A stretch of DNA of 64,000 nt. Source: an uncultured virus (IMG/VR IMGVR_UViG_3300025630_000012) (Duplodnaviria > Heunggongvirae > Uroviricota > Caudoviricetes). Within the stretch, counting starts at the first letter, position 1. Each line of letters opens with the position of its first letter. Below the pieces are notes generated by a model. The model was not told the DNA's origin. It saw nothing but the letters and a program-made list of their open reading frames with translations, and made no database searches. The translations under genes were made by a program, and so were the position numbers. Location: IMG/VR virus record IMGVR_UViG_3300025630_000012, one strand, 5' to 3'. Of the stretch, positions 12,796 to 58,569 are shown one piece after another.

Positions 12796-12802
12796 AACGT
12801 AA

Positions 12803-28242: not shown

Positions 28243-28605
28243 ATGGCTACGTTTCCACACGATTACACGATGAAAAAATACGGGCTTGTCGAAAGCGACT
28301 TGTCCGACGATGCCTCTGACGCATTAGAGGAGTTTGAGTCCTACTTGGCGCAACTTTCTAATCTTAAAAAGAAAGGTGGTGAGGGGTGGATTATGACAAA
28401 AGAGCAACAAAAGAAAATCAATCGACTTTCTCGTGCGGTATGTACGGAGATAGAGTTAATGATTGAAGATGCTCCCGAAGAAGAATCGGAGGCCAAGAAC
28501 AAGCCTGAACCCAAGCGAGTCCCCCGTCCTGAACCTGTTTCGCAAGAAGAAAGCGAAGAAGACGAGGAGCAAGACGATAGCATCTTCAACTTTTTCGGAT
28601 TGTAA
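28243..28605 (+). CDS. hypothetical protein
   Basis: ORF after an AT-rich intergenic region. Confidence 0.7.
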   Translation: MATFPHDYTMKKYGLVESDLSDDASDALEEFESYLAQLSNLKKKGGEGWIMTKEQQKKINRLSRAVCTEIELMIEDAPEEESEAKNKPEPKRVPRPEPVSQEESEEDEEQDDSIFNFFGL

Positions 28606-29282
28606 TGACTAACGGGTCTATCATATCCATCAATCAGCTTGTCTATGGTCAGCCGACTATTGAGCAAAAGATGATGATGGCTAATGGCACGGCATTCTCT
28701 AAACACACCAAAGTGTTTATGAATGAGCCTTATCCAAAGAATGATACGGGTAATGCCAAGCAGGAGGTTTATGACGTAGTAGCCAAATTGGAAAAGTTGA
28801 GCGATGACGAGTGGCGTAATCGTTGCTTTTTCATTGACAAACAACTTGGTAAATACCTGAACGGATATGCTCAAAAGGCGGGTCTGCGTAGCTTCAAGCA
28901 AATTTTTGACCAAGTGAATGAGTTGTATCTCCACGCCTTGGTCTATGAGTTGAAATATCACTACAACCGCGTTAGACCCGCTGAATTAGCTTACTATCTG
29001 CGTATTGGACTCAACCCTGCCACAACAATGACGGGACATACCCCGTCGTACCCTTCGGGTCACACGCTTCAAGCGCACTTTTTCAGTAAGTTGATAAGCG
29101 ATGTCATGGGTGTGCCGTGGAGCGATGAGCCAACCAAAGAAGTCGCGGCTTCGCGTATGTCTATGGGCATACACTTTAAGTCAGACAACGATTTCGGAGT
29201 AAAAATTTCGAACTATCTTGTAAACACCGAAGAATATCAGGAATTGGTATCTGAAATTCAAAGACAATTGGGAAATGTTTGA
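28605..29282 (+). CDS. PAP2 / vanadium haloperoxidase-like phosphatase
   Basis: KYHYNRVRP, PSYPSGH, SRMSMGIHFKSD (all three PAP2 motifs). Confidence 0.88.
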   Translation: MTNGSIISINQLVYGQPTIEQKMMMANGTAFSKHTKVFMNEPYPKNDTGNAKQEVYDVVAKLEKLSDDEWRNRCFFIDKQLGKYLNGYAQKAGLRSFKQIFDQVNELYLHALVYELKYHYNRVRPAELAYYLRIGLNPATTMTGHTPSYPSGHTLQAHFFSKLISDVMGVPWSDEPTKEVAASRMSMGIHFKSDNDFGVKISNYLVNTEEYQELVSEIQRQLGNV

Positions 29283-29445: not shown

Positions 29446-29447
29446 AT

Positions 29448-29939: not shown

Positions 29940-30241
29940 TAGACCCCGACGATATTCATGGGTTCATAAATAGGATAATCGAAGAGATTTGTCAACACTT
30001 CGGTATTCATAGGGAACTTGTGTTTATTTCTCGTAGTAAAGACGAGAGGCGCATGAACGCCCTAATTACAATCGTTTACTACCTAAAAAAGCATACAATC
30101 CTTTCTCATCGAGAAATTGCAAACATTGTTCAAAAAGATGTGTCATCTATTTCCAAATACTACAAATTCTGCATAGATTTGGATGATAAAATTCCCCAAC
30201 ATCGGAGAATTTTAGAAGCGATAGACACACTTAAAATATGA
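29930..30241 (+). CDS. DnaA C-terminal-like HTH DNA-binding protein
   Basis: IIEEICQHFGI...SR...LSHREIANIVQKDVSSI. Confidence 0.65.
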   Translation: MGVIDPDDIHGFINRIIEEICQHFGIHRELVFISRSKDERRMNALITIVYYLKKHTILSHREIANIVQKDVSSISKYYKFCIDLDDKIPQHRRILEAIDTLKI

Positions 30242-31107
30242 GCGACGCACAAACTCTTGACGACATCGTAGTTGACGACACAATCGAAACCAATTATAGC
30301 GATGTGGTCAATTACAACCCGCTTGGGGATAACGTAGAAGAAAAGGACTACCAAAAAGCCAACCTACAAGGCGCAGGTAGGCTTCCCGACCTTGAAGAGC
30401 CAACTTTTGAGCCTCCCACCCTTGAAGACATCCGTCCCGAAATGTTCGGAGGCGATACGGGTGAGGACGAAGACGAAATTTTCGGACGTGAGCGACTGAA
30501 CGATATGCCCAAGGGCGATAAGAAGAAGGCCGCCCAACAAATGACCGAAATGATTTTGGAGGGCTATTCGAGCATTTGTTCGTTTGGCGGAAACCTCGCT
30601 TCAATGAAGGAGGGAAAGTTGATGGAGATGCAAGCAGAAGGCAAAATAGACCTTCGTATGCCTATCCCCGTAAGCCCGACTGAAAGAGTTGGCGTTCTCG
30701 ATTTCGTCCAAAGCTACAACGCGCAGATTGATGAGGCGATGGAGGTGTCGGATGAGTTCAAAGAAGCCGTCCGCCCACCCATGACTCGTATCCTTGAAAA
30801 GAAGGGTGTGGGCATGACCGACGAGCAGTTCTTGCTTGTCATGTTCGGTAAAGATATTATTACGAAATCAGCAACTACGATTGCGCTTAAAAGGCAGTTG
30901 ACACGAACGTTGGAGTTGGTCTATGACCAATATCAAAATTCAGGTCAACCTATGCCTCCTCCTCCTCCCCCTGTAACGCCTCCTCCCGCACCGCAACCTA
31001 CGCAACAACAAAGCGCAGAAGAAAGTGCATCAGAATCACGCAGGGAGCGCAGAGCCAAAGGGCGTAAGAAGGGTAACAAAGCGAAAATCGTAGCACCAAA
31101 TGATTAA
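30238..31107 (+). CDS. hypothetical protein (acidic N-terminus, Pro-rich/basic C-terminus)
   Basis: 289-aa ORF. Confidence 0.75.
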   Translation: MSDAQTLDDIVVDDTIETNYSDVVNYNPLGDNVEEKDYQKANLQGAGRLPDLEEPTFEPPTLEDIRPEMFGGDTGEDEDEIFGRERLNDMPKGDKKKAAQQMTEMILEGYSSICSFGGNLASMKEGKLMEMQAEGKIDLRMPIPVSPTERVGVLDFVQSYNAQIDEAMEVSDEFKEAVRPPMTRILEKKGVGMTDEQFLLVMFGKDIITKSATTIALKRQLTRTLELVYDQYQNSGQPMPPPPPPVTPPPAPQPTQQQSAEESASESRRERRAKGRKKGNKAKIVAPND

Positions 31108-31825
31108 GGCGGTAGTCAACATCAACATCGGTTGCTACGAAGAAATTTTTCAGCCCTCCTACGAGAACTCAACATGGGACTTTTACACCATAACGGATTT
31201 AGAGCAACGTAACCATAGGGCGTGTAGCAACGAATACTTTTTCGAACCAATCGTTCACGATGACGAGAGTTTAGATGGATTGAGTTCAAAAAGAAAGGCA
31301 AGTTTTTACAAGGCGAAGGCTTTAACCCTTCTCGAACAACTTACGAGCATTGATTACGACGTTGTTATTGTGCTTGATAGCAATGTTGAGGTTGTTGGGA
31401 ATCTCGACGAGTTCATTGACCAATACCACGGCAATAACGACATTTCTATGCCACCGCATCCCGATTGTGATAGCTATATCCAAGAGGTCGAGAAAATTCG
31501 CCAAATCCGTAAGGAGTGCGGTAAGGAAATTGAATCCGAAGAGAATATGGAGGAGACCATAGAAAAGATGATGTTGCGCGGATTCAAGTTTGACAACGGC
31601 TACCACGAAACGACATTAAGCATCCGCTCTAATACGAAGAGGACAAAGGCTTTTGAAAAAGCATGGGCGAAGAACTATCTCAACCTTCCGACAAAAAGAG
31701 ACCAAGCGTCTTTGGCTTTGACGCGATTTGAAAAGAAGACAACGCAGTTTAACACACTTGAAAATCCGTTGAATCACACTTGGACAACGCCATTTTTAAG
31801 ACATCCTCATAAGTACAATGCGTAA
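31100..31825 (+). CDS. DUF616-like glycosyltransferase
   Basis: WDFYTITD, VLDSN, HPDCD, KRDQASL. Confidence 0.72.
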   Translation: MIKAVVNINIGCYEEIFQPSYENSTWDFYTITDLEQRNHRACSNEYFFEPIVHDDESLDGLSSKRKASFYKAKALTLLEQLTSIDYDVVIVLDSNVEVVGNLDEFIDQYHGNNDISMPPHPDCDSYIQEVEKIRQIRKECGKEIESEENMEETIEKMMLRGFKFDNGYHETTLSIRSNTKRTKAFEKAWAKNYLNLPTKRDQASLALTRFEKKTTQFNTLENPLNHTWTTPFLRHPHKYNA

Positions 31826-32501
31826 GGCCGTAGTAACATACAATTTTGGCGACTACGATAGAGTTGCCCCGATTTTGTGGAAGAGTAGCGATTGGGACTA
31901 CTACTTGTTTACGGACAATCACGAGGCCAACGCGGAGGGATACAAGCGGGTTGTGTTGGACAAATCGTTTTTTCATAGCGAAGACCCCAAGCGGAGGGCA
32001 AACCAAATCAAATACACGCCTTTTAAGACGCTTGAAGAGCAGTTAGGCGAGCATTATGACTTGGCAATTGTGATGGATGCAAACTTGGCAATAGAAGGCC
32101 CGCTTGATGACTTCGTGGACATTTACATGATGAGCAGTTCAGATGGAGTGTTTATTACCCACCCGAATTGCGATAGCGTCTACGATGACTTGGACTTATG
32201 CAATGAATTTAAGAAAGACGACCCGCTCGTTCTTCTTGACACGCACCGATACTTCAAAGAAGAGGGATACCCCGATAAAGTCGAACATTACTTCCAAACG
32301 ACATTAAGCATTCGTAGAAATTCAGGCGGGTGGTCAATTGTAGAAAAAGTGTTCTACGATGAGTATGCAAAATGGTCAAAGAGAGACCAACCAATGATGA
32401 ATTTTGTCCATTGGAAGTACCCCGTGTTAGACCTTAACGTAATCGACATTAAGCATATCGGGGAGTACATTAAGTATGAAAAACACCACTTTGAAAAGTA
32501 A
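31818..32501 (+). CDS. DUF616-like glycosyltransferase (paralog)
   Basis: NFGDYD, WDYYLFTD, VMDAN, HPNCD, KRDQPMM. Confidence 0.75.
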   Translation: MRKAVVTYNFGDYDRVAPILWKSSDWDYYLFTDNHEANAEGYKRVVLDKSFFHSEDPKRRANQIKYTPFKTLEEQLGEHYDLAIVMDANLAIEGPLDDFVDIYMMSSSDGVFITHPNCDSVYDDLDLCNEFKKDDPLVLLDTHRYFKEEGYPDKVEHYFQTTLSIRRNSGGWSIVEKVFYDEYAKWSKRDQPMMNFVHWKYPVLDLNVIDIKHIGEYIKYEKHHFEK

Positions 32502-32503
32502 TC

Positions 32504-33238
32504 ATGGCTTGGAAACCACCCAAAATTCTTCTTGGTGGCCCAACTGCCATTGTAAAGCAGTATTGCGCTGACGATTGGATAGAAAATATCCGAAAAATCG
32601 TGTATCCCGCTGAAATAGATATTTTGCTCGCAGACAATTCAGAGGACGAGAGCAATGTGGAGTTTTGGAAGAGCAGAGGGGTAGAGTGTGAGAGGGTCAG
32701 ATTCAGCAAGGCAGAGCCTATCATCAGTCGCATAACAAAAAGCCACAACCTTTTAAGAGAGAGGGTTTTGGAAGGTGGATATGACTTCCTTTTTCATGTT
32801 GAAACGGACGTCTTTCCCGAACCCGACGTACTTATCCGCTTGTTAAGCCATCGTAAGGCAGTAGTGAGCGTGAGTTACGACATCTTTGATATGCACGATA
32901 GAGAACCTGTGATGTTGCAAATTGAAGATGAGTACGATGGCGAGGCCCATGCCGCGATTAAAAGAGGAAAATATATCCATACGGAATATGATGGAACGTT
33001 AAAGCAAGCGTGGGCAAATGGAATCGGTTGCATCCTATTGCATCGTAGTGTCTTGGACAAGTTTGAATTTCGATATGACCGCGACCGCGATGGCTTTTGC
33101 GATAGTTGGCTTGCGTATGATTTGAGGGCTATGGGCATCCCTATTCATGTGGATACGTCTATGTATGCCTACCACAAAAACAAGGATTGGAGAAATTTCG
33201 GAGACGACTTCGTTTCGAAAGTCCACACAAACTTTTAA
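32504..33238 (+). CDS. GT2-like glycosyltransferase
   Basis: LADNS, HVETDV, GIGCILLHRSVL, IHVDTS. Confidence 0.75.
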   Translation: MAWKPPKILLGGPTAIVKQYCADDWIENIRKIVYPAEIDILLADNSEDESNVEFWKSRGVECERVRFSKAEPIISRITKSHNLLRERVLEGGYDFLFHVETDVFPEPDVLIRLLSHRKAVVSVSYDIFDMHDREPVMLQIEDEYDGEAHAAIKRGKYIHTEYDGTLKQAWANGIGCILLHRSVLDKFEFRYDRDRDGFCDSWLAYDLRAMGIPIHVDTSMYAYHKNKDWRNFGDDFVSKVHTNF

Positions 33239-33240
33239 TT

Positions 33241-33546
33241 ATGGGGAAAACAAAAGAACTTTTGATGAAAGAGTTGTCGAAAGACAAAGAGACGAACCAA
33301 CAAAAATTCGCGGTATTTCAAAATCGTATCTTCAAAAAAGAGGGGTATGTAAGCGCACTTGAAAATTTGCTGAAAGTTTCGAAGGCACAAGCCGATAAAG
33401 CCGAAACTACGGAGATTGAAAGAGCGCGGTTGTGGGTACAAATCTTCGAAGTCGAAGACAAACTAAATGCCCAACGTCAAGTTCTTTCTCAACATAGATT
33501 GTATTTGAACGAACTGAAAAGGTTGGACAATGAGCAGAATTTGTAA
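33241..33546 (+). CDS. coiled-coil hypothetical protein
   Basis: ATG at 33241. Confidence 0.7.
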   Translation: MGKTKELLMKELSKDKETNQQKFAVFQNRIFKKEGYVSALENLLKVSKAQADKAETTEIERARLWVQIFEVEDKLNAQRQVLSQHRLYLNELKRLDNEQNL

Positions 33547-34339
33547 GTTAGGAGTTGCCGTAGGAAAAAAGGGTATTGGTAAGACCTACCAAACGACCCA
33601 AATGATGAAGGAGTATGCCCGTGGTGGAAACGGCATAAAGGCTCGACGTGTTCTCATCCTTGATGTGAATGATGAGTTTGAGGAGTTCAGGGCGATGAAG
33701 ATTAAGGACATCGAGTTGTTCAGCATCCACCCCAAGATTGAAATACGTCGCATCAGACCCTTTAAGGACGATGGTACACGTATGACACTTCGTGACATCG
33801 CAGATACACTCTATCTCATTCTTGAAAAGTATCGTGGCGGTCTTCTTCTGATTGAGGACATCAACAAATACATATCAGACCACCTGCCTAACGACTTGGT
33901 TGGCGCAATATGTACAAATAGACACACCAATACCGACATTATCATGCACTTCCAAAGCATCGGAAGGATAACGTCTAAAATTTGGCAAAACCTGAATTGG
34001 ATACGATTCCACAAAAATTCAGATTCGGTAGAGAGGCATAAGAATAAGTTCCCCGACAAGATTGACCTTTTCAGCATCGTGGAAAGCATGGTCAACAAAA
34101 GATACTACGATGGTGACGTTCGATTCTTTTTGTACGTCGATGTTGATGAAGAGAAGATTTACGGCAATTACGACGAAGAACTCTTCATGTATGCGGTGGA
34201 CGAGTATTGCTCGATGAACCATCGGCACGTAGTCAAGCCCTACATCAACAAAAGGAATGAAAAAGGGAAGAAAATGTTTACTCCCGAACAAGCAATACAG
34301 GCCGCGAAGGAGTTATTCAAGAAAAACTACTACCGATAA
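33530..34339 (+). CDS. FtsK/HerA-superfamily (A32/P9-type) putative genome packaging ATPase
   Basis: Walker A GKKGIGKT, ILD, Walker B LLLIED, and NRH...HFQS motif. Confidence 0.75.
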   Translation: MSRICKLGVAVGKKGIGKTYQTTQMMKEYARGGNGIKARRVLILDVNDEFEEFRAMKIKDIELFSIHPKIEIRRIRPFKDDGTRMTLRDIADTLYLILEKYRGGLLLIEDINKYISDHLPNDLVGAICTNRHTNTDIIMHFQSIGRITSKIWQNLNWIRFHKNSDSVERHKNKFPDKIDLFSIVESMVNKRYYDGDVRFFLYVDVDEEKIYGNYDEELFMYAVDEYCSMNHRHVVKPYINKRNEKGKKMFTPEQAIQAAKELFKKNYYR

Positions 34340-34427
34340 TTCACAAAAATTCATCTCGTGTATTCTGACTTTTGAGAATTAAGAGTGAAAAAAATTAGGT
34401 TACGAATTTATTCATAAGTTTAACTAT

Positions 34428-34435
34428 TATATTTG
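34428..34435 (+). promoter_or_regulatory. Bacteroidota -7 promoter element (TATATTTG)
   Basis: Exact TAnnTTTG in an AT-rich gap before the structural operon. Confidence 0.6.
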
Positions 34436-34455
34436 CAACGAAAATCTTTGGTAAG

Positions 34456-34557
34456 ATGGACAAAAAGGAAATCAGTAAGGTGGCGTTGACCATCGTGTTT
34501 ACGGCACTTGGCGTAGCGGGCGGTATGCTCCTCTACGACCGCGTTCTTCGTAAGTAA
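34456..34557 (+). CDS. tiny single-TM protein (33 aa) preceding the capsid candidate
   Basis: Manually translated: MDKKEISKVALTIVFTALGVAGGMLLYDRVLRK. Confidence 0.75.
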   Translation: MDKKEISKVALTIVFTALGVAGGMLLYDRVLRK

Positions 34558-34671
34558 TTCGAAGCGATATAAGTTCCCCTTCGTTGGTGCGGAGATAGTG
34601 AACTTGCTTTGATGACCGAGCGACAATTTTAATTTTTCGTTTTCATTTAATCATTTAAGAAAAAAATCATC

Positions 34672-35394
34672 ATGGACTACAAGAAGTATTTCGCCCAAGC
34701 CGAGGAACAAGCCAACGAGCAGTACCTCAACTATGGTGGATACCCTGCCGTTGATGCCGATTTCGACGATTACGTGGAAGCCGCAGGTGGTTCTTACATG
34801 AACCAAACGGGTGCGATGAATGGCGGAGGTGCTCCAACCTCACAACCCTACATCATCACCATTTCTAACTCGACTACCAACGCTGTTACTTCTAACATCA
34901 TTGGTAAGGCGTTCGCTAACATTACCGCATCAGGTAACGGCATCAACACAGGTGTCACCTACACGATGGGTATTAGCGGAACAACCTACGTCGAGTTCCT
35001 TTACCAACAATTGAACAAGCCATTTATCGTAGGTTTAACCTACGTTGATGCTTCTTCACAGGCGCAAGCCTTGAAGACGTTGCAGTTGAAAGTACGGGAC
35101 ACTAATGGTAATGTTCAGGAAAGAACCATCGTTCCAACGGTAGACCCCTACCAGCAGCAGACGGACATCCTTGCAATCCGCCAATCTTGGCGTTGGGATG
35201 GCTTTACGTCTATTGCAGTTGACCTGAACGCATCAGCGTCTGCGACCTTCTACTTCTACCCATCCGAAAACGTCAACCTTACTCGTGGACTCGCGGGTCA
35301 GTCCGTGGCTCGTGGCTACGGCAACCCTAACGTCGTTCGTCAGGATAAGGTTGTACTCGGTGAAGGTGTCGCACAGGCATTGGCACAGGGCTAA
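34672..35394 (+). CDS. putative major capsid protein (beta-rich, jelly-roll candidate) with N-terminal extension
   Basis: Position after the ATPase and small TM gene; upstream promoter and own terminator; alternating beta-strand patterns; no Cys; fold inferred only. Confidence 0.55.
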   Translation: MDYKKYFAQAEEQANEQYLNYGGYPAVDADFDDYVEAAGGSYMNQTGAMNGGGAPTSQPYIITISNSTTNAVTSNIIGKAFANITASGNGINTGVTYTMGISGTTYVEFLYQQLNKPFIVGLTYVDASSQAQALKTLQLKVRDTNGNVQERTIVPTVDPYQQQTDILAIRQSWRWDGFTSIAVDLNASASATFYFYPSENVNLTRGLAGQSVARGYGNPNVVRQDKVVLGEGVAQALAQG

Positions 35395-35414
35395 TATCCT
35401 AACCAATAACACAT

Positions 35415-35457
35415 GGAGAAGGTGGCGGAAATTTTTTCGCCACCTTTTCTTATTTTT
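35415..35457 (+). terminator. rho-independent terminator after the capsid candidate
   Basis: AAGGTGGCGGAA/TTTCGCCACCTT stem with a T-rich tail. Confidence 0.85.
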
Positions 35458-35476
35458 ATAGCAAATTTTTCACGAA

Positions 35477-36055
35477 ATGAATCTTTACTCATATATCGCC
35501 TCCATGAATCCCCGCAAGGCTAATGTTCTTTTAAGGAACAACGGCTTTGGTGAGGGAAAAACAACATCTGAAATTGAGGCGCGATTAAAGCAGTATGTTA
35601 GAGAGGAGCGCGAGGAGGCAATGAGGGAGGTTGCGAAGATTCACCCCGACAAAGAACTTTTAATTGGAGATGGCGTCAACTCGGAGTTATTGAACTACAC
35701 GGGAAGAGAGCGTCACCGCAACTTCAACGGACAGGAATTTCTTCAAGACCTCGACACTACGACTTACTATGGGCCAAACGCAAATCAAAACCCATACCGC
35801 CCTATCGCACCTGACTTTTTCAATAATGCCATTGGCGTAAGTCAGCAACAATTCCCAATGAATAAATCAGCAGACGCGGGAATCACAAAAGATGACTTGA
35901 AAGAAGCCGTTAAAACTGCCGTCACCGAAGCCAAGGCAACGGAAATGTCCTCTGAACCAAAGACGGCAAGCGTATTGTCTTTCAGTCAACAAGAAGTCGT
36001 CATGATGTTGGGCTTTGCATTTTTGGGATACCTCATCGCTAAAAAAGGATTATGA
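35477..36055 (+). CDS. C-terminally anchored membrane protein
   Basis: C-terminal TM + KK; LLNYTG and HRNFNG motifs. Confidence 0.75.
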   Translation: MNLYSYIASMNPRKANVLLRNNGFGEGKTTSEIEARLKQYVREEREEAMREVAKIHPDKELLIGDGVNSELLNYTGRERHRNFNGQEFLQDLDTTTYYGPNANQNPYRPIAPDFFNNAIGVSQQQFPMNKSADAGITKDDLKEAVKTAVTEAKATEMSSEPKTASVLSFSQQEVVMMLGFAFLGYLIAKKGL

Positions 36056-36672
36056 AGAACAAAAGAGAGGCCGCGAAAGTATTGGCAAGCGTAATTGATG
36101 ACCGCACAACGGAGGTGCGCGATGCGCTATTTGATTCGGGCGTAAAAATCAGCCCAAATGCCGATAAAGATGAAATTGTTTATGCCATCCTTGAAAACCT
36201 TGGGACAAATCGTAGGCTACAAAAAAAAGTCGGAAAGTTGGCTTTGGAGGTTAGCCCTCAGTCCTTTCCCGATTTAAGAGCGCGTAGAACGAGCAGAAGA
36301 CCACAACTCGACCAAACAGGATTTTTTAATCAGTCGGGCGACGACAAGTTTTTTCAGTCCGAGGCGGGGCAACAAACCCTCGATGCCGCAGGTCAACTTG
36401 CGGGGACTCTTTTGGGCAATTTTCTTGCCAATAGACAAGCTGAAAAGCAAGCGCAGTTAGATGCGGAAACGGCAGAAAGCCAAGCACGTCTTTTACAGGC
36501 AAATGCGGAGTTGGTTAAGGCAAACCTTGCGCTTGAAAATATCAAGGCTCAACAAGCATCTATGATGACACCGACGGGCAAGATGCTGATGGGAGTCATC
36601 CTTGTCGGTGCGTTGCTTGCAGGGTTCTACTTTTACAACCAATCAAAGGGCGGTGCTACGGCAACAAACTGA
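36052..36672 (+). CDS. C-terminally anchored coiled-coil membrane protein
   Basis: FFNQSG, Gly-rich helix, coiled coil, TM. Confidence 0.75.
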   Translation: MKNKREAAKVLASVIDDRTTEVRDALFDSGVKISPNADKDEIVYAILENLGTNRRLQKKVGKLALEVSPQSFPDLRARRTSRRPQLDQTGFFNQSGDDKFFQSEAGQQTLDAAGQLAGTLLGNFLANRQAEKQAQLDAETAESQARLLQANAELVKANLALENIKAQQASMMTPTGKMLMGVILVGALLAGFYFYNQSKGGATATN

Positions 36673-36677
36673 TTCGG

Positions 36678-36962
36678 ATGGAGCAAGTAGAGGACGTAGA
36701 ATTTGAAGAGGTACAAGAGGTAGATGAGGTAGCGGAAGAGTACGATAAACTACCCAAAGAGACAAAAGAGAGCATAGCCCGCATACAAGGCAAAAAAAGG
36801 GTCTATGAGTCATCTGAAACAAGCACCTATTTATTGGGCGCGGCTTTGGGTGGCGGATATGCAGTTTACAAGCGGAAAAAAGTGCTTTTGGGAGTCGGTT
36901 TTGGCATTCTGATGGCATATTTTTATCTTGAATTTTTAGATAAACCAACAAAAGAATCATAA
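36678..36962 (+). CDS. small membrane protein
   Basis: Two short hydrophobic helices flanking KRKK. Confidence 0.72.
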   Translation: MEQVEDVEFEEVQEVDEVAEEYDKLPKETKESIARIQGKKRVYESSETSTYLLGAALGGGYAVYKRKKVLLGVGFGILMAYFYLEFLDKPTKES

Positions 36963-36966
36963 TCGA

Positions 36967-37395
36967 ATGTTGTCCGCAAATCAGTTGCATAAGCAGAGCC
37001 AATTACAAATGGATTTTCAGGATTTCCTTTCAAAGATGAAGGAAGCCTTTGGGGAAAATTTCATGGAAAAGGTGAACGAGGGTAAGGTTGCCCTTCAAGA
37101 GATTCAGTCCGCGTTAGGATTGATGGTTACACCCAAAAGTAGTGAGCAGGAAAAGCCCCAAGCACCCGTTCAGAGGCGTAGAACGGCTAATCCAACGAAG
37201 AATGTAGAACCAAAAGTTCAAGTCAAGAAAGTCACGAAGTCAGCGACGGGCGATGCAGGATTCAAACCCAAGTGTAGCAGTTGTGAGAAGAACAAAAAGA
37301 ATGCTACGGGGAAAAAGAGCAATACGATGCGTAACGTCTTGATTTTTGCAGGTATCGGGGCAGTCCTGTTTTGGGCAGTCAAAAATAGACGTTAA
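36967..37395 (+). CDS. C-terminally anchored membrane protein
   Basis: TKSATG, KKNATG, CSSC, TM + KNRR. Confidence 0.75.
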   Translation: MLSANQLHKQSQLQMDFQDFLSKMKEAFGENFMEKVNEGKVALQEIQSALGLMVTPKSSEQEKPQAPVQRRRTANPTKNVEPKVQVKKVTKSATGDAGFKPKCSSCEKNKKNATGKKSNTMRNVLIFAGIGAVLFWAVKNRR

Positions 37396-38210
37396 TGGAA
37401 GTAGAGGTATATGTAGGCAGTCAGCCCACGACTTTGGTTATCCCTATCGAAACCGCGCAGGAGCATAAAATAGGCATCCGCGTTAAGTCGGTAGAAAACC
37501 CCAACACACTTTACGTTGATAGATACAAGACAATCAACGGGAGAGTAGACATTGAGGTTGGAATGCCCATCGCGCCTGAAAAGGTAATTGTAGAGGTCTA
37601 CAATCAACCTATGGGCATGATAAGCATGAATGGGGGCTATCGTGTAGGGAAGATTATTCAGAAGCCTTTGCAGGATATGCCTCAGTGTATCAATTACTCA
37701 AATCCGAAAATTAAGTCAGCACTACCCTTTTTTACCAAATTCTCCGCGATTGCAGGATTTGCTGATGCGGGCGACAAAGTGTATTACGACAAAACTTTCG
37801 AATTTGTAATTGTCTACAAGGACTCTATTCCCGAAGCGATGGAGACGCCCGCTCGTATCCACGCGCAGAAGGGATTTATTGAAGTGAGTGCCGAATACTT
37901 CCGTCGCTACACCATACCGATGCGTATGGCAGTTTTGCTTCACGAATTTTCACACTTTTGGCTTAACCGAGATATAGATAGCGAAATAGAAGCCGATTTG
38001 AATGGTCTTGCGCTATACCTGTCGTTAGGATACCCTCGAATTTCTGCATTTAATTCTTTCGTAAAAGTATTTATGAATGCACCTACCGCGCAGAACCACG
38101 AGAGAATGGAAATAATAAAGAAATTTATTAGTAATTTTGATTCAGGCAATCCCCCGTCATTTGGGCAACCTTTGGCGGCCTTGACCCCACAATGTCAAAA
38201 TAAAGTTTGA
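37395..38210 (+). CDS. zincin metalloprotease, candidate virion maturation protease
   Basis: AVLLHEFSH followed by EIEAD (third ligand). Confidence 0.75.
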   Translation: MEVEVYVGSQPTTLVIPIETAQEHKIGIRVKSVENPNTLYVDRYKTINGRVDIEVGMPIAPEKVIVEVYNQPMGMISMNGGYRVGKIIQKPLQDMPQCINYSNPKIKSALPFFTKFSAIAGFADAGDKVYYDKTFEFVIVYKDSIPEAMETPARIHAQKGFIEVSAEYFRRYTIPMRMAVLLHEFSHFWLNRDIDSEIEADLNGLALYLSLGYPRISAFNSFVKVFMNAPTAQNHERMEIIKKFISNFDSGNPPSFGQPLAALTPQCQNKV

Positions 38211-39301
38211 TGTCTTTTAAGCACAATACAGGTGATTCTTTTCTACCCTCGGTAGACCCGTTTGGAGGTCGCGGTGAAAGTGGTGGTTTGAATCATGGAG
38301 GTCAGTACGATGTAGAGTACATCGTTGAGAACTTAAACAAGGGAACACGCACACCCAATGCTACGGCACGTCCGACTGCAAATCGCGCAGTAAGAAGAAA
38401 GAGCGCGAAGGCGGGTCAGCGTCCCTTTATGAGAAGTACGCCTCCTGTGGCTACCCCCAAGCCGACGAAGCAAGAAATTGCCCGTATGAAGTCCGCTACG
38501 GGCGTTGATGACGTTAGCGTTGATAACGAGGATTTCGTCAATGTTTCGGGCGCGAAAAAGAAAGAGATTGAACGCGGATTAGCGGACTACACTTGTTGGA
38601 GAGTTTGGGATGGCGGTGGTCAGAATTGCGCCTCACACGCACGATGGGAATTGCAACAAGGACGTTGCAACTCGCCCGTAGTTTCAGTAGCCAAGCAACG
38701 CCTTGAAGCCTGTACGCGAGCGCAGGGGAATCCCGATGACGTAGCCAAGTGTACGAAAGGGCGTGTGAACTACCAAGACAATGCTTTTTCTGACAAGAAA
38801 GGTAGGCGCGAGCACGTTCAAGGAACTGCAAAAAATTGGTTGGCAGACCTTGAAAGTGAGGTCGATGCTTGTTTGTTAAAACAACAAATGGGTGGAAATG
38901 GCGGTGGAAATACCATCTATGGTTGCATGGATGAGGATGCCTTAAACTACGACCCTACCGCAACCTTCAATCGTGGTTGTGAATATGCCGACGAAAGCGA
39001 TGACGTGGATGGCGGTTTCGACGACAATAGTTCTAACATGAACGCCAAATTGGATGAACTTTTTGAGCGATTGGGTAGCCTTGAATTTGGCAACGCTCCA
39101 TCGGGCGGTGGTGTCCCAACGCCTTCTGATAGCTATGCTTATGACTACGACTATGCACAATCGTCGGTTGGAGGTTCAAGCATGAATCCCCTTCTCATTG
39201 GTGGAATTGTCTTGGTTGTGGGGTTGGCTATTTTTATGATTAACCAACCAAAAAAGGTAGCTATGCCACAAGTTGCCCCAAGAGTTGCTCCAACTGCATA
39301 A
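38210..39301 (+). CDS. C-terminally anchored Cys-containing protein
   Basis: MKSATG, FVNVSG, one GCMD..NY..C repeat, TM. Confidence 0.75.
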   Translation: MSFKHNTGDSFLPSVDPFGGRGESGGLNHGGQYDVEYIVENLNKGTRTPNATARPTANRAVRRKSAKAGQRPFMRSTPPVATPKPTKQEIARMKSATGVDDVSVDNEDFVNVSGAKKKEIERGLADYTCWRVWDGGGQNCASHARWELQQGRCNSPVVSVAKQRLEACTRAQGNPDDVAKCTKGRVNYQDNAFSDKKGRREHVQGTAKNWLADLESEVDACLLKQQMGGNGGGNTIYGCMDEDALNYDPTATFNRGCEYADESDDVDGGFDDNSSNMNAKLDELFERLGSLEFGNAPSGGGVPTPSDSYAYDYDYAQSSVGGSSMNPLLIGGIVLVVGLAIFMINQPKKVAMPQVAPRVAPTA

Positions 39302-39302
39302 C

Positions 39303-39965
39303 ATGAGTTTTAACCAAACAATTGACCAAAGCGTATGGGATAGTTTGATGAGTCAAACGGCATCCCAAAAATCTTCGTCACAAACCAATAAGGTAAAGAA
39401 GTTTACGGGCGGAGACGCATACAAAAATGCAGACGGCAATTGGGTTAGAGCCAAATTCAAAGCCCCCATCCGCGATGCGGTAAAGGACATGATTGGTTTT
39501 TGGCAACACAAGGAAGGAAGCGTAAATTGCTCTGCCTTGGATGCCTCAATAAGCAAGGGAAATAGCCTTTTGAGCCTTCATTCATCAGACAAGAATGCTT
39601 TTAATCAAGCCGTGGAAGATGCTTGGACATCGCCCGTTAAAAGGGATGCCAAGATAACCAATCAAAGGGGCAAGTACGCGGCTCAAATGATGGAGCAGTA
39701 CACCGATGAACTCCAAAGAAAGCGGGACTCTCAATGTAGGGTTAGCGGAGATAAAGAGTTGGACTACGCCCAAAAGGATTTGGACTCTTCGTATGGGAAC
39801 TTGGGATATACCCCGCCTAACATGAACTATCAGCCGACACAGGCAGGTTTTGGTGGTGGAAACACCATGATATACTTAACCCTTGGGGCTATTGCCTTGG
39901 CGGGAATTATGATTATCAAAGCCCGCTCACCACAACCAACCCCTACAACTTACGTCAATGGCTAA
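39303..39965 (+). CDS. C-terminally anchored membrane protein
   Basis: VKKFTG, YKNADG, TM. Confidence 0.75.
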   Translation: MSFNQTIDQSVWDSLMSQTASQKSSSQTNKVKKFTGGDAYKNADGNWVRAKFKAPIRDAVKDMIGFWQHKEGSVNCSALDASISKGNSLLSLHSSDKNAFNQAVEDAWTSPVKRDAKITNQRGKYAAQMMEQYTDELQRKRDSQCRVSGDKELDYAQKDLDSSYGNLGYTPPNMNYQPTQAGFGGGNTMIYLTLGAIALAGIMIIKARSPQPTPTTYVNG

Positions 39966-40281
39966 TAGAGATATTTTTGGGTTCGCACCATCATCACATT
40001 CGGGATTCAAGAAGGCCACGGGTTCTAAATGCGATTGCATTTGCAAGGATGGCGTAAAGTACGAGAAGGCTTGCGATTGGGACGAGTGGGCGATGTGCGA
40101 TTGTTGTGTTGGTTTTTGTGCGGGTAAAGACACCGATGTCTTTTCAAGAGCCACGGGAGGCAGAAAATGCCGTTGCCACCCCAACTGCGACAACCTCGCT
40201 TACAACTCGCCCGAATGCGAAAAATGTTGTTACGACAACGAAACAAAAGGTTTCAAAAGTGCTTGTGGTTGCGGGGCATGA
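39958..40281 (+). CDS. Cys-rich small protein (16 Cys) segmented by repeated motifs
   Basis: FKKATG, FSRATG, FKSACG. Confidence 0.75.
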   Translation: MANRDIFGFAPSSHSGFKKATGSKCDCICKDGVKYEKACDWDEWAMCDCCVGFCAGKDTDVFSRATGGRKCRCHPNCDNLAYNSPECEKCCYDNETKGFKSACGCGA

Positions 40282-40415
40282 GTAAAGAACCAAAAATCAC
40301 ACGATGGCAACAGGCAAGGCGATACCTTGTCGATAGAAAACGAATCAATGAGATAAAGGTGAGCAGATTGAAATGGAATCTGCAAAAGATTTTAGACAAG
40401 AGCGGTGAGGGATAA
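40278..40415 (+). CDS. small basic protein
   Basis: ATGA coupling; terminator overlaps the stop. Confidence 0.5.
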   Translation: MSKEPKITRWQQARRYLVDRKRINEIKVSRLKWNLQKILDKSGEG

Positions 40416-40428
40416 CCCACCGCTTTTT
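40399..40428 (+). terminator. rho-independent terminator
   Basis: AGCGGTG/CACCGCT stem + T5. Confidence 0.7.
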
Positions 40429-40532
40429 GCATTGTAAAAAACGCGGAAACACTAAAAATTATTTCCGTATTTTTATTGGCAAATTTGGCATGAAGTATTT
40501 CAGCCGACGATTATCGAAACAACACAAATACA

Positions 40533-40757
40533 ATGGCAAAGAACAACGCAATTTTTGGCTTTAAGAGCGCGAGCGGAAGAGGCGGTTATAGAAACCAAAC
40601 AGGTGGCGGAGATTATTGGTACACCTTGGGAAGACAGGCGGCAGAGGCCGCGTTTGCACAAGGTGGCGTCAATGGTTTGTTGGCATTCCTCGCAGGTTTT
40701 AACGCATCTGATTATAGCTACGGAGGCGCAGGGGACTTATTGGACACCTTGAACTGA
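40533..40757 (+). CDS. small Gly/Ala-rich protein
   Basis: IFGFKSASG, YRNQTG; N-terminus resembles that of 39958. Confidence 0.72.
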   Translation: MAKNNAIFGFKSASGRGGYRNQTGGGDYWYTLGRQAAEAAFAQGGVNGLLAFLAGFNASDYSYGGAGDLLDTLN

Positions 40758-40805
40758 TATTAACGAGAAAAAAATCTCGTTTTATCACCTTTTCACCATT
40801 AAGCA

Positions 40806-41309
40806 ATGTCGCTCCTTTCAAACAACAAAACGCCAAGCTACTCCATAGCGCAACAACAATGCCTTGCTATACCCAATAGAGGTAGTCAGGCAAGTAAGTG
40901 GATGGCGTGGCATCAGAGTTTGAAGGCTTGCTTTGGTAGGTCAGGAGCGAATGCTTTGTGGATGGAGGCTTGGGATAGGTACGGAAGAGGCACATCAGTT
41001 TCTACAAGCACCCAACTTCTAACCTACATGAGAAGCCAAGGGGTTGACATCTCACAAGGAGCGGGAGAGTCGTTAAGTATCTTCGGTAGCGATGTAGCAA
41101 GTTTCTTCGGAGGCTATATCAACTTCTCCAAATACGTCGGAATGGCACTTGCGGGCGGTATCGCAATAGGCTTTTTGATGCTTCTCTACAACATCATTAT
41201 GAACCCTGCAAAGGCGAAACAAAGCCTCGGTGTCATCACCGAAGGGGCTATGATGGCAACGCCACAAGGTCGTGTCGCATCGGTTGCAACAAAATCCATA
41301 GGGCAATGA
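40806..41309 (+). CDS. membrane protein
   Basis: Trp-rich N-domain, TM near the C-terminus. Confidence 0.75.
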   Translation: MSLLSNNKTPSYSIAQQQCLAIPNRGSQASKWMAWHQSLKACFGRSGANALWMEAWDRYGRGTSVSTSTQLLTYMRSQGVDISQGAGESLSIFGSDVASFFGGYINFSKYVGMALAGGIAIGFLMLLYNIIMNPAKAKQSLGVITEGAMMATPQGRVASVATKSIGQ

Positions 41310-41722
41310 ACGAGAAAAGAGTAAGAGGAATCTTGATAGGCTCTGCCCTCGTGTTGGGTGGCGTTGCTATGTATGGCGTTCATCGCAAAAAGAAGTCCGC
41401 ATACATCGCAGTTCAAAACAAAATACGAGGTATAGCCGTTGGCACGGGAGTGGGGTACAACCCTGATTCTTCGACTTTTAACGCACAACAAATCTCCGAA
41501 GCACTTTATGATGCAGGAGAAGGAAGGTGGGGAACTGACGAGCAAGAAATTTTTGCAATTTTAGAGCGAATAGCAGATTCCCAAAATCCGCAAGGTGTAT
41601 GGATTCAGGTTGTCAACGCTTATCAATCGAAGTACAACAGACAACTTGTTGGCGATTTGAGAGATGAGATGTCAGGTAGCGATTTAACTAAACTAACCAC
41701 ATTATTAGCCCGATTGTCGTGA
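41306..41722 (+). CDS. N-anchored annexin-repeat protein
   Basis: ALYDAGEGRWGTDEQEIFAIL...YQSKYNRQLVGDLRDEMSG. Confidence 0.8.
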   Translation: MNEKRVRGILIGSALVLGGVAMYGVHRKKKSAYIAVQNKIRGIAVGTGVGYNPDSSTFNAQQISEALYDAGEGRWGTDEQEIFAILERIADSQNPQGVWIQVVNAYQSKYNRQLVGDLRDEMSGSDLTKLTTLLARLS

Positions 41723-42327
41723 AAGAAGATTTACCACTCATATTAGGAGGATTAGCGGTAGGAGCAGTCGTAGTATGGTATTTGACCAAGCCCGACTCTA
41801 CCAAGTCAAGACCTGTTCCCGAAGGGAGAGAAGAAGATTTGGGTTCAGGAGTTGTGGCATTAGGTGCGCCTACACAAGTCATTCAAGGTCAAGCAGGAAC
41901 TCAACCGAGCGTTCAAACCACAAATACGACGACAACGCAACAACCTGCATCCCCCCCTCCACCTTACGCCTTGGTAAATATCAACCCCGCATTCCAAGGC
42001 ACAACTGCCTACAACGATATGTTTGGCGGGTGTGACTTCCCTCTACTGCCCGATACGGAAAGTGTATGCGTGAAGCGTTTGCAAGATGCCTTTGATGTAA
42101 CCCAAACAGGGGTCTTTGATGAGCCTACGCAAGTGGCACTCGACCAATACATAGAAAAACTTCCCAATAGGACGGATGGGCACTTCGGGGGGTTCACACG
42201 AGAGGGGTGTATTGGATTTGACCCCATCTCGAATAAGACAACTAACGTCTGCGGACTTAACCACGACCAATACCTTGAAATTCTCTTCAAAATGGGGATT
42301 CCATTAACTGAAACTTACGATGCGTAA
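41719..42327 (+). CDS. N-anchored protein with a peptidoglycan-binding-like motif
   Basis: VKRLQDAFDVTQTGVFDEPTQVAL. Confidence 0.6.
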   Translation: MKEDLPLILGGLAVGAVVVWYLTKPDSTKSRPVPEGREEDLGSGVVALGAPTQVIQGQAGTQPSVQTTNTTTTQQPASPPPPYALVNINPAFQGTTAYNDMFGGCDFPLLPDTESVCVKRLQDAFDVTQTGVFDEPTQVALDQYIEKLPNRTDGHFGGFTREGCIGFDPISNKTTNVCGLNHDQYLEILFKMGIPLTETYDA

Positions 42328-42877
42328 AGAGTACAAAAATTTTATGGGAGACCGCTCCTCTATGTCCGTGGACTTGGACTTGGAGAGAACGGATGATTTT
42401 GTGAACCAAGTCGCGTATAACCCTGATGGTTTATTTGACTTTTTGGATGATGAAGACATCAAAATTACCCCATTAGGCACAAGCAATGGCGTTTTAGATA
42501 GTGACGGAGATGGTATTCCCGATATGATTGACATTGACGCGGGTAGTGGTACAGGAAAGCCCACAACGACTCCTTCTGCACCTGCACCGCGAGCCAATAA
42601 AGGCCAAGGTCTTGGCACGTTTGCTTCGGGATTGGCAAAAGGCTTGGGTCTCATCAATAGGGGCGCAACGCCACCACCACCCGTAGGCGATAGTCAGCCC
42701 GTCACCGACACCGCAGGATTCACAAACGAAGGCAGAAATATGGTTATACCATTGTTGGTTGGCGGTATTGCCGTTTTGGTTGTGTTTTTAGCCATAAGTG
42801 GCATGAAAAAATCAGGCGGTTCACCGCAGGTGTCTGTCTCCACTCCTTCACCCTCAAATAGCAACCCTAACGCATGA
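42320..42877 (+). CDS. C-anchored membrane protein with a Ca-binding-like loop
   Basis: YKNFMG; DSDGDGIPDMID; TM. Confidence 0.72.
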   Translation: MRKEYKNFMGDRSSMSVDLDLERTDDFVNQVAYNPDGLFDFLDDEDIKITPLGTSNGVLDSDGDGIPDMIDIDAGSGTGKPTTTPSAPAPRANKGQGLGTFASGLAKGLGLINRGATPPPPVGDSQPVTDTAGFTNEGRNMVIPLLVGGIAVLVVFLAISGMKKSGGSPQVSVSTPSPSNSNPNA

Positions 42878-43386
42878 ACAGAGCGCAGATATTCGCTCTT
42901 GTAGCCCTCGTTGGATTGTCAATAGGGCTATACTCGTATGTCCAAAAGCAAACAAAGCGTTTGTACATGATGGACTACGAATTTGAAAATGTTAGAGTTG
43001 CGGGAATAGGCAAAGAAGCCGTGACACTATCATTTGAGTTGGTTCTTGAAAACACAAGTGACCTCGATGTCAAAATTTACAATGTGGATTTCAAGGTATT
43101 ATGGAACAATACGCAGGTGGGTAAGGTCAATTCTCGCCAAGCCTACATTGTCCCAAAGCGCAGTACAAAGGTCGTCCCGCTTACGCTTACACTCTCTCGA
43201 AATGAGATGAATGAGGCGATTCGTGATGCCTTTTCGAGTTTACAGAGTTTCGTTAGTGGAGTAATCAAAATTCAGGGGTCGATGGATGTCGGTGCTGATG
43301 TCATTAAAATCAGCAATTTTCCCTTTGATTACGAAGTGCCCGCTTCTAATTTAGTCGGAAATTCAATTCAATCCGTAATTCAGTAA
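42874..43386 (+). CDS. LEA_2/WHy-domain membrane protein
   Basis: N-terminal TM; LVLENTSDLDVKI..VDFKVLWN..VG. Confidence 0.75.
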   Translation: MNRAQIFALVALVGLSIGLYSYVQKQTKRLYMMDYEFENVRVAGIGKEAVTLSFELVLENTSDLDVKIYNVDFKVLWNNTQVGKVNSRQAYIVPKRSTKVVPLTLTLSRNEMNEAIRDAFSSLQSFVSGVIKIQGSMDVGADVIKISNFPFDYEVPASNLVGNSIQSVIQ

Positions 43387-43389
43387 GCT

Positions 43390-43803
43390 ATGAACGAAAT
43401 CGTTAAGAACATCGCAATGAGCGAAACCAAGTCGGTCTTCAAAAAGGCACTCGTAAATTTTGCCGACAAGAATGAAATCGACTGCAAAAGCAATCAGCTT
43501 TTAATCCGCTCCAACAAAGAGGGTGAACCATACTACACTTACTGCATTGACTTTGCAGAAAAAAAGCGTATAACCTTCAACGAAGTTCTTGGTGTAAAGG
43601 TCGATTTCAAAAATCGTGAGGCTATCGCAAGCCCATTTATCACAAAGACGATTTCACGTTTGAGCGAAGAGCACAAGTGCGAAAATGACGATGTGAAAAT
43701 CTATGCTTGCACATTTGACGAAAAAGCAAAGGACGTTTTTCTCTTCGGATATATTAAAAATCAAAAAATCGGACAAATAAGTTTCGATTGGTTATTCAGC
43801 TAA
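43390..43803 (+). CDS. hypothetical protein
   Basis: 137-aa ORF. Confidence 0.75.
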   Translation: MNEIVKNIAMSETKSVFKKALVNFADKNEIDCKSNQLLIRSNKEGEPYYTYCIDFAEKKRITFNEVLGVKVDFKNREAIASPFITKTISRLSEEHKCENDDVKIYACTFDEKAKDVFLFGYIKNQKIGQISFDWLFS

Positions 43804-43807
43804 AAAC

Positions 43808-44107
43808 ATGGCGATAGAAATTTTAGGCAACGAGATTTTCACCCAAACACTCACGGGTAGTGGCGGGTCAGAGGTTCTTTCCATCACGGAAGCCGATGGC
43901 GTGGGTATCATAAGTGTGCTTTGTACGAGTGCTACGTCAGGTACAATTTTGGGGAATGCAACAATTGACGGCAAAGCCTCCGAAGCAATTTCTGTCGCAC
44001 AAAACAATTCAATCACAATTTCAGCAACTTCGGGCAAGACACTCGGTACTTTGACCATCACCGCGCCCGATGGTTGTACACTTTTGGTCGTAGCAAATCA
44101 GGGATAA
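43808..44107 (+). CDS. small all-beta protein (penton/vertex candidate)
   Basis: 99 aa, T/S/I/G-rich beta-strand pattern; role inferred. Confidence 0.5.
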   Translation: MAIEILGNEIFTQTLTGSGGSEVLSITEADGVGIISVLCTSATSGTILGNATIDGKASEAISVAQNNSITISATSGKTLGTLTITAPDGCTLLVVANQG

Positions 44108-44436
44108 TGACAAAACAAGCATTGAGAAGCAACTTAATTGGCGTGGTAGCGGTATCGCTATCCTTTGCCCTTGGCATCACGCTATATCAAGCCTTTTTGG
44201 TGGCTGACTTGGCTGATTTAGAGGACTCGACGGAAAGAAAAAGCGCACCCAAGCCCACCCCCAAGCCCGCACCTAAATTTTCGGGAGGTAGCACCCCCGC
44301 ACCAAAGCGTCGTAGCGCGATGAAAGAGTTTAGCGGTCATGGGCAAGCAGTTTCAGACAACGTACCCGACAACGAAAAAGTTAATTCTAACAAGCAACTT
44401 ATCCAAAAGGCGAAATCGTCTGAAATGCTCACTTGA
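44107..44436 (+). CDS. N-anchored membrane protein
   Basis: TM, PKP repeats, MKEFSG. Confidence 0.72.
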   Translation: MTKQALRSNLIGVVAVSLSFALGITLYQAFLVADLADLEDSTERKSAPKPTPKPAPKFSGGSTPAPKRRSAMKEFSGHGQAVSDNVPDNEKVNSNKQLIQKAKSSEMLT

Positions 44437-44438
44437 TT

Positions 44439-47165: not shown

Positions 47166-47169
47166 TACA

Positions 47170-53238: not shown

Positions 53239-53250
53239 TTCTGCTTAAAA

Positions 53251-53781: not shown

Positions 53782-53782
53782 G

Positions 53783-54247: not shown

Positions 54248-54249
54248 TC

Positions 54250-56725: not shown

Positions 56726-56728
56726 ACT

Positions 56729-57880: not shown

Positions 57881-57899
57881 TGATGCCCAATGAAAGTTG

Positions 57900-58193: not shown

Positions 58194-58223
58194 TTATTTA
58201 TTATTTTAGCAAAAACAATTACG

Positions 58224-58567: not shown

Positions 58568-58569
58568 TC

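Follow-up and report, generated by a model that had tools for sequence, protein, structure and literature searches.

In one published account (PMC12643093), the sphaerolipoviruses are described as having linear genomes of about 30 kb with inverted terminal repeats (ITRs). The genomes of PRD1 (Tectiviridae; 14.9 kb), P23-77 (Helvetiavirae, Sphaerolipoviridae; 17.0 kb), and Salisaeta icosahedral phage 1 (SSIP-1; 43.8 kb) are all much smaller than the 102-kb contig considered here, as had been anticipated for tailless membrane phages. SSIP-1 is a tailless, membrane-containing phage, and the Finnlakeviridae (FLiP and phiCjT23, membrane-containing phages of Flavobacterium) have single-stranded DNA genomes that measure about 9 kb and capsid proteins with a double jelly roll. 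Here, we analyze 64,000 nucleotides (nt) of DNA from an uncultured virus (IMG/VR record IMGVR_UViG_3300025630_000012), hereafter called the window, and in particular three of its plus-strand genes, which encode an ATPase of 269 amino acids (aa; positions 33530..34339), a 33-aa membrane peptide (34456..34557), and a 240-aa protein with a predicted jelly-roll-like fold (34672..35394).

A preliminary description of the window had read these genes as the morphogenesis module of a tailless, lipid-containing Bacteroidota virus with a single jelly-roll capsid protein and a genome of at least 64 kb. That reading is supported overall. We propose, with a probability of roughly 0.6, that the window derives from a tailless Bacteroidota virus with an internal membrane, with a shell built from the 240-aa single jelly-roll protein and the B204-like ATPase as its packaging motor; from the observations below, we infer the roles of the two proteins in the capsid and in packaging, the presence of a membrane, and the shape of the particle. 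Because an overlap of 11,759 nt is identical, the window can be placed at positions 3194-67193 of a metagenome contig of 102,007 bp (or of a contig with the same sequence), in which the last window gene is also found at 100% identity. The large size proposed for the lineage thus stands, and the lower bound for this genome rises from 64 kb to at least 102 kb.

The ATPase and its closest structural relatives

All three motifs attributed earlier to the ATPase are present in its translation (GKKGIGKT at residues 12-19, LLLIED at residues 105-110, and R131-H132...Q142), and K18, E109, D110, R131, H132, and Q142 are invariant across 50 homologs. An AlphaFold2 model based on the alignment of these 50 homologs reached a predicted local distance difference test (pLDDT) score of 90.9 and has a RecA-like core with Walker A and Walker B motifs. 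When the model was compared with the Protein Data Bank (PDB) by Foldseek, the first 15 matches listed were to the packaging NTPase B204 of STIV2 and STIV (E values of 6e-9 to 4e-6), followed by Zot (5e-6) and HerA (9e-6). Among the matches listed, the closest fold is that of a viral packaging NTPase, ahead of HerA, VirB4, FtsK, and Zot, and the grouping with VirB4/TraD or Zot that the preliminary description had considered did not emerge from this structural comparison.

At the sequence level, the evidence is thin. A profile alignment (hhalign) with the P23-77 packaging ATPase gave a probability of 78.8% (E value of 1.7e-5 over 138 columns), that with PRD1 P9 was restricted to Walker A, Pfam returned only DUF87/HerA below its cut-off (E value of 0.0021), and sequence and profile searches of the PDB yielded nothing meaningful. 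B204 (Turriviridae, A32-like branch) shares only 16% identity with the window ATPase, has no counterpart of its helical C-terminal part (residues 214-269), and belongs to viruses of an archaeal host, whereas the host here is bacterial. Judged from the model, the protein belongs to the FtsK-HerA superfamily (A32/B204-like), is small with a single domain, and has a viral packaging enzyme as its nearest solved relative; it is probably the genome-packaging motor.

Fold and family of the 240-aa protein

The 240-aa protein is our candidate for the major capsid protein on the basis of its predicted fold, the size of its family, and an RNA contig described below. It comprises an N-terminal region (residues 1-18) with a conserved helix (residues 3-18), an acidic disordered stretch (residues 18-55), a beta core (residues 56-200), and a conserved C-terminal tail. 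In the AlphaFold2 model (56 homologs), the core block has pLDDT values of 79 to 95 and about ten strands, and there is only one such core, of 145 residues. The beta-rich, jelly-roll character proposed for this protein is thus reflected in a jelly-roll-like model, with weak matches in the PDB: Foldseek found none at an E value of ≤1e-3, and the weak ones comprise satellite virus and comovirus capsid proteins, C1q/TNF proteins, Ena fibers, and a tail-needle knob. A second structural comparison agrees, and BFVD gives C1q/collagen-like and fiber proteins; the structural scores fall in a range deemed unspecific. P23-77 VP16 and VP17 and the other Helvetiavirae capsid proteins are absent from the best 50 VIA structural matches, which says nothing of a difference in fold. 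Sequence and profile searches of the PDB gave nothing meaningful, and the ESM Atlas, which returned scores of 0.84 to unnamed clusters, was set aside as uninformative. The safe statement is that the modeled protein is a single jelly-roll-like sandwich that cannot be assigned to a specific family.

A word-indexed search recovered 323 homologs of the 240-aa protein at an E value of ≤1e-3, and an exhaustive profile search recovered 851 cluster representatives at 50% identity. The ATPase has 929 homologs, and with families of this size the finding is not due to chance. Several forms of the jelly-roll protein occur within the family. Four of five complete relatives (G001, G002, G004, and G005) encode a second, smaller paralog (147 to 180 aa) that keeps a DPYQ-type motif; profile searches detected no such paralog in the window or the next 9.3 kb. 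The relative G006 (ATPase E value of 1.7e-103) has six jelly-roll matches, including the canonical gene near the ATPase gene and a 397-aa tandem protein (L041/G006 17396-18409) with two full copies, each with its own preceding helix. A second tandem form, of 411 aa, occurs in a different lineage. The presence of single, small-paralog, and tandem forms in one family would fit a unit that works in pairs. The tandem gene of G006 lies far from the ATPase gene and has HNH endonuclease genes on both sides.

A probable short transcription unit with its own terminator

Hydropathy analysis found one hydrophobic segment in the 33-aa peptide (residues 9-27; Kyte-Doolittle value of 2.03), in agreement with its description as a single-pass membrane peptide. 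At 21 nt before this open reading frame (ORF), where a promoter had been postulated, lies the Bacteroidota-type -7 promoter-like motif TATATTTG (34428..34435, plus strand; TAnnTTTG type). Because the TAnnTTTG class is not enriched across the window (39 found versus 48.7 expected), this motif taken alone is a weak point, and the spaced pattern TTG-N19-TAnnTTTG had no match. The two-gene unit is closed on the plus strand by a predicted intrinsic terminator at 35415..35450, a 16-pair stem with 7 GC pairs followed by a T-run; this hairpin is the top terminator-like site within positions 30000-45000, as strong as had been supposed.

Six metatranscriptome runs contain 7 to 9% of the sampled words of positions 30000-39999, and four of them were compared with positions 28000-47999. 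In each of the four, one RNA contig of 891 to 1,012 nt was found (34461-35395, 34464-35421, 34473-35478, and 34516-35400), with a depth of 6.6 to 18.8 and 12 to 17 differing letters; the remaining fully matching RNA pieces in the 20 kb measure 151 to 202 nt at depths of 2 to 4.8. The long contigs come from close strains of the window virus. They start 26 to 81 nt past the end of TATATTTG and end at 35395-35478 with no loose ends, and three of the four cover nearly the whole 33-aa ORF, the fourth starting within it at 34516. Taken together, the contigs hint consistently at one separate and abundant transcript of the 33-aa and jelly-roll genes, as expected of a major structural protein.

Gene order and conservation among relatives

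The collection of IMG/VR relatives suggested by the preliminary description yielded 36 loci with the ATPase, on contigs of up to 101 kb. Homologs were counted within 10 kb of the ATPase gene, and the counts are lower bounds because many loci are short. The core genes are recurrent: a PAP2-family gene (35 loci), a gene for a 289-aa protein (35), the ATPase gene (35), a gene for a basic 98-aa protein (33), the jelly-roll gene (27), a gene for a 192-aa membrane protein (25), and a gene for an HExxH protein (22). Among the genes present in at least 20 loci, the 98-aa protein, the ATPase, and the jelly-roll protein have the highest median identities (62%, 57%, and 40%, respectively), and those of the PAP2 and 289-aa proteins are 30 to 33%. 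The ATPase and jelly-roll genes occur together in 32 of 41 loci examined, and 28 of these 32 have one or more small membrane-like ORFs between them, commonly of 33 to 45 aa and just before the jelly-roll gene. The layout of ATPase, small membrane proteins, and capsid protein invoked earlier is thus seen in the annotations of PRD1 and P23-77 as well as, with the jelly-roll gene as the candidate capsid gene, in most of the loci collected here.

Downstream of the ATPase gene, membrane proteins are in excess. A crude hydropathy scan flagged a membrane segment in 22 of 32 plus-strand ORFs between 34456 and 58782, compared with 3 of 40 upstream, close to the count of about 20 anchored proteins given at the outset. 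A tblastn search of INPHARED with the ATPase, the jelly-roll protein, and the 98-aa protein matched no phage genome, and no description of the group was found in the literature, as judged from titles and abstract openings.

Search for tailed-phage hallmark genes

The claim that no terminase, portal, HK97, or tail gene is recognizable in the 64 kb was borne out by scans with Pfam and PHROGs (78 window ORFs) and with NCBIfam (49 window ORFs), none of which returned a family of any of these four kinds. The search was extended, as had been advised, to the 9.3 kb downstream, where neither a terminase (17 ORFs) nor a portal or HK97 capsid protein was found. In G001, a Pfam scan of 101 of the 104 ORFs of at least 60 aa detected no tailed-phage hallmark; in G005, a PHROGs scan of 122 of the 123 ORFs of at least 75 aa detected none apart from "tail fiber" and "tail spike" matches of a generic, collagen-like kind. 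A weak match to phrog_2666, "terminase large subunit" (E value of 9.8e-6), in G005 is the 272-aa ATPase itself. PF03237 was found in none of the five complete relatives, and the control genomes responded. No Pfam capsid family was present in the window ORFs or in G001; portal and HK97 folds can escape sequence profiles, and structures were predicted for two window proteins. The 671-aa Walker A protein encoded at 10780-12795 was considered as a hidden terminase and rejected: its language-model neighbors are AAA_5/MoxR clusters, and a VWA protein is encoded next to it.

Host, habitat, and genome form

The window ends within the gene for an N-acetylmuramoyl-L-alanine amidase, a predicted endolysin (63789..64000, plus strand; 70-aa piece, Amidase_2 E value of 0.0026), which is complete on the contig (145 aa; E value of 2.8e-14), in agreement with the bacterial host deduced earlier from this gene. 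The 9.3 kb beyond the window also encode an M43 peptidase and two proteins of 162 aa and 654 aa with CHU_C type IX secretion system (T9SS) sorting domains (E values of 4.5e-7 and 3.7e-15, respectively), followed further on, on the minus strand, by RecT and a PD-(D/E)XK nuclease. T9SS is a system of the Bacteroidota (FCB group), and the sorting domains therefore point to Bacteroidota as the host phylum. From its gene content, the virus appears to use the T9SS of its host to export its own proteins. The two CHU_C genes are located at L077 12363-16918 (64.6-69.2 kb in window numbering), with the M43 metallopeptidase gene between them. Labels of metagenome-assembled genomes (MAGs) were rejected as a guide to the host: the labels of the 11 loci scatter among unrelated phyla, presumably through binning noise, and were not used on their own, those of the ten loci other than the integrated relative described next being left out altogether.

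Independent host evidence comes from a distant, integrated relative of about 53 kb (L072-L075), which is located at about 345,000-398,530 of contig C2 in G007, a 2.27-Mb chromosome labeled Parvicellaceae. Its ATPase, jelly-roll, and HExxH proteins share 39%, 25%, and 26% identity, respectively, with those of the window; it ends with a tyrosine integrase gene and is flanked by genes for T9SS-tailed proteins and housekeeping genes. This element suggests that temperate members exist. It also carries genes for Abi_alpha, GH108, and DUF2272 proteins and, next to the integrase gene, for a patatin-like phospholipase, and a second jelly-roll homolog is encoded on another chromosome-scale contig of the G007 assembly. 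Fourteen DNA runs labeled as freshwater, aquatic, estuary, salt marsh, or marine contain half or more of the words sampled, and five of these runs are possibly the source sample. The habitat of the virus is freshwater to estuarine, and the virus group appears to be common.

The window has a one-directional, virus-like gene array with a GC content of 41 to 49%, and converging arms from both ends of the contig give a layout that resembles that of G001. The ITR class is assigned to two complete relatives (G001 and G002), and an exact ITR of 127 nt was confirmed in G001 (68,799 bp). Records of relatives rated complete measure 68 to 102 kb (e.g., 101,210 bp for G005 and 102 kb for G006), and the marker genes are also carried by MAG contigs whose lengths (132 and 148 kb) refer to the contigs and not to viral extents. 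The start of the window, which has a CTTAAATAGC motif resembling the G001 ITR, was considered as a near-terminus and ruled out, the window beginning at contig position 3194. Close to its left end, the window has a tRNA-Gln gene (anticodon TTG; 948-1019, minus strand).

Neighboring genes

In this section, the window features from position 28605 onward lie on the plus strand. The conserved core upstream of the ATPase gene includes the gene for a PAP2-family lipid phosphatase (28605..29282; Pfam PAP2, E value of 1.1e-7); PAP2 and other viral lipid enzymes would fit a lipid-containing particle. The 289-aa protein (30238..31107), with an acidic N terminus and a proline-rich basic C terminus, has no Pfam, PHROGs, or NCBIfam match and may be an assembly or packaging-vertex factor. 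Its gene is directly upstream of the ATPase gene in G001, L059, L062, and L063. In the window, three consecutive genes for proteins of 227 to 244 aa (31100..33238) lie between the two; the middle one (31818-32501) matches the glycosyltransferase family phrog_26101 (E value of 2.1e-14), and the insert is present in the close relatives L053 and L054 and has no BLASTP match in G001.

The block that follows the jelly-roll gene (35477..58782) is mostly membrane-anchored (21 of its 30 ORFs) and has almost no family matches. It includes two giant N-terminally anchored proteins, of 910 aa (44433-47165) and 2,038 aa (47122-53238), and a conserved soluble protein of 271 aa (37395..38210) with a HEFSH zincin-like motif at residue 183 and a weak PhageMetallopep match (E value of 0.006); this is the HExxH protein with homologs in 22 loci, and the integrated relative also encodes one. 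The very basic 98-aa protein (57897..58193; weak DUF5754 match) may condense DNA. Its gene is 24 kb downstream of the ATPase gene here and a few kilobases upstream of it in relatives, and thus has been moved by a rearrangement. Two small membrane proteins of the block have family matches, one to annexin repeats (41306-41722; E value of 8.3e-7, above the Pfam cut-off) and one to LEA_2 (42874-43386; E value of 2.7e-5, just below the cut-off), and an LEA_2-like protein is also encoded by G001.

Toward the end of the window, two beta-rich proteins (60013-60678 and 62242-63345) share an N-terminal SFGI-SGSGGG motif and differ past it, with the gene for an RCC1-repeat protein (60675-61976) between them. 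Their genes are putative host-recognition genes, and the two proteins have the appearance of receptor-binding proteins that can be swapped while the anchor is shared. No IMG/VR relative was found for the last of them (62242-63345), and none was found for P0320.

In the left part of the window, genes at 10780-14934 form a trio encoding the 671-aa ATPase (Walker A at residue 30), a 381-aa HEFGH protein, and a 329-aa VWA-like protein; the corresponding region of G001 encodes an AAA_5 protein. A 2,569-aa giant protein with SNF2 and helicase-C domains (15892-23601) matches PHROGs that likewise consist of giant phage proteins, and relatives encode other giant "polyvalent" proteins, one of which, in G001, has Zeta-toxin-like kinase and ART-PolyVal domains. 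We suspect that the giant polyvalent-type proteins of the group are delivered with the DNA. The Pfam content of G001 further includes RecT, nucleases, RusA, AAA_5, PAP2, glycosyltransferases, Amidase_2, and lysozyme. At the left end of G005 (1943-7907; L078), six consecutive ORFs match DNA methyltransferase PHROGs, four of them encoding 260 to 283 aa, beside a gene for a DnaQ-like exonuclease.

Proposed particle and alternative explanations

If the proposed reading holds, the 240-aa protein would be made abundantly from its own short transcript together with the 33-aa membrane peptide, and the resulting jelly-roll outer shell would cover a vesicle studded with about 20 virus-encoded membrane proteins. 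The ATPase, docked at one vertex, would pump DNA into the preformed particle, and the amidase and other wall hydrolases would free the progeny.

Several points weigh against this picture. Three of the viral structural matches of the 240-aa protein are small chains of PRD1-type phages, which we take to be penton or vertex proteins and not major capsid proteins, and hhalign found no similarity between its profile and PRD1 P3 and P31 or P23-77 VP16 and VP17. The many jelly-roll paralogs per genome (e.g., the six matches in G006) would also suit fiber knobs or accessory proteins. The transcript is read only as a hint because RNA contigs cannot strictly rank genes and because DNA carry-over in RNA libraries is possible, and the membrane count depends on the crude scan noted above. 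No DNA polymerase or terminal protein was recognized, though relatives carry ITRs. Finally, the contig sequence examined consists of the window and the 9.3 kb downstream, the other 28.7 kb being outside this scope.

In the main alternative explanation, the virus is the same kind of tailless membrane virus and the 240-aa protein is a vertex (penton), spike-knob, or cement protein, the true capsid protein, possibly a double jelly roll, having gone unrecognized. We consider this unlikely, although it deserves serious attention. No soluble conserved ORF has the size of a double jelly roll, the others encoding zincin-like and helical or acidic proteins; the jelly-roll gene ranks among the three most conserved and yields the sole long RNA contig of positions 28000-47999 in all four runs; and receptor-binding parts usually vary fast, whereas the jelly-roll protein keeps 40 to 98% identity across the group. 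The exceptional membrane load would suit a virus that is enveloped or pleomorphic and lacks an icosahedral shell, in which the jelly-roll protein serves as a matrix or nucleoprotein-associated protein, the 910- and 2,038-aa anchored proteins are possible spikes, and the very basic conserved 98-aa protein could condense DNA. However, to our knowledge, B204/A32-type ATPases go with preformed icosahedral procapsids, and the known pleomorphic viruses of prokaryotes have genomes several-fold smaller; this explanation is improbable.

Slightly more improbable still is a tailed phage so divergent that its terminase, portal, and HK97 capsid proteins were missed by the profiles, with the ATPase and the jelly-roll protein in accessory roles. 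Most ORFs lack a Pfam, PHROGs, or NCBIfam match, G005 has its "tail fiber" and "tail spike" PHROGs, G001 has Phage_lysozyme2 ("Phage tail lysozyme"), and hallmark genes might reside in the outlying 28.7 kb. However, the large terminase subunit, normally the easiest hallmark to find, was unseen in the window and in two complete relatives, the only other Walker A protein looks like a MoxR-type AAA protein, and the fiber matches are to generic collagen and beta-helix domains; tailed phages that package by terminase are not known to have ITRs or A32-like ATPases. A nonviral mobile element (e.g., an island for conjugation or secretion that encodes a VirB4/TraD-like ATPase and membrane channel proteins) is scarcely credible. 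The 269-aa ATPase lacks the additional domains of VirB4 and coupling proteins and has B204 as its best match, Pfam scans of the window and G001 detected no relaxase or pilus family, an endolysin gene is located at the window end, and viromes repeatedly contain linear ITR genomes whose size is fixed. The tailless virus with an internal membrane and a shell of the 240-aa protein thus remains our preferred explanation.

Implications and comparison with known systems

The group would extend the tailless, membrane-lined design to 68 to 102 kb. Because classifiers and taxonomy lean on tailed-phage markers, such genomes are easily mislabeled or ignored. They offer a natural test of how a very large shell can be built from a small protein with one jelly roll and of how double jelly rolls arise from single ones, and isolation and cryo-electron microscopy are realistic because Bacteroidota hosts can be cultured. 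Rather tentatively, and with doubt prevailing, we suggest a broader possibility, namely, that these viruses are part of a large global bacterial branch of single jelly-roll membrane viruses with a Helvetiavirae-like design, unrelated sequences, linear ITR genomes of about 70 to 130 kb, and single, paralogous, and tandem jelly-roll forms. If true, the branch would provide a living series for the origin of double from single jelly-roll capsid proteins, at several times the known size limit.

Among the described systems, PRD1 has an annotated gene order (P9 ATPase, gpi, P20, P3, and then P22 and other small membrane, packaging, and delivery proteins) that matches that of the window. Its genome is linear with ITRs, which are seen here in G001 and G002. 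The differences concern the capsid protein, P3 being a double jelly roll of 395 aa whereas the window protein has a single beta core, and replication, PRD1 having a protein-primed polymerase and terminal protein whereas none was recognized in the window group. P23-77 shows the same kind of arrangement (ATPase, ORF14, VP15, VP16, VP17, and so on); it has small and large capsid proteins, and a second small paralog is likewise present in most of the complete relatives, though not detected in the window. Helvetiavirae genomes are 3 to 6 times smaller than those of the group described here, and their hosts differ. SSIP-1, whose genome is large for its kind, encodes a giant structural protein (gp43; 2,319 aa) comparable in size to the 2,038-aa anchored protein of the window; its record is circular, whereas the relatives here are linear with ITRs, and none of its proteins showed similarity to any window, G001, or G005 protein by profile or BLASTP searches. 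For the Finnlakeviridae, the structural scores do not rise above the noise. As a kind, such a virus is known, and what is new is its size of at least 102 kb, its single small jelly roll, its more than 20 membrane proteins, and its wide aquatic range.

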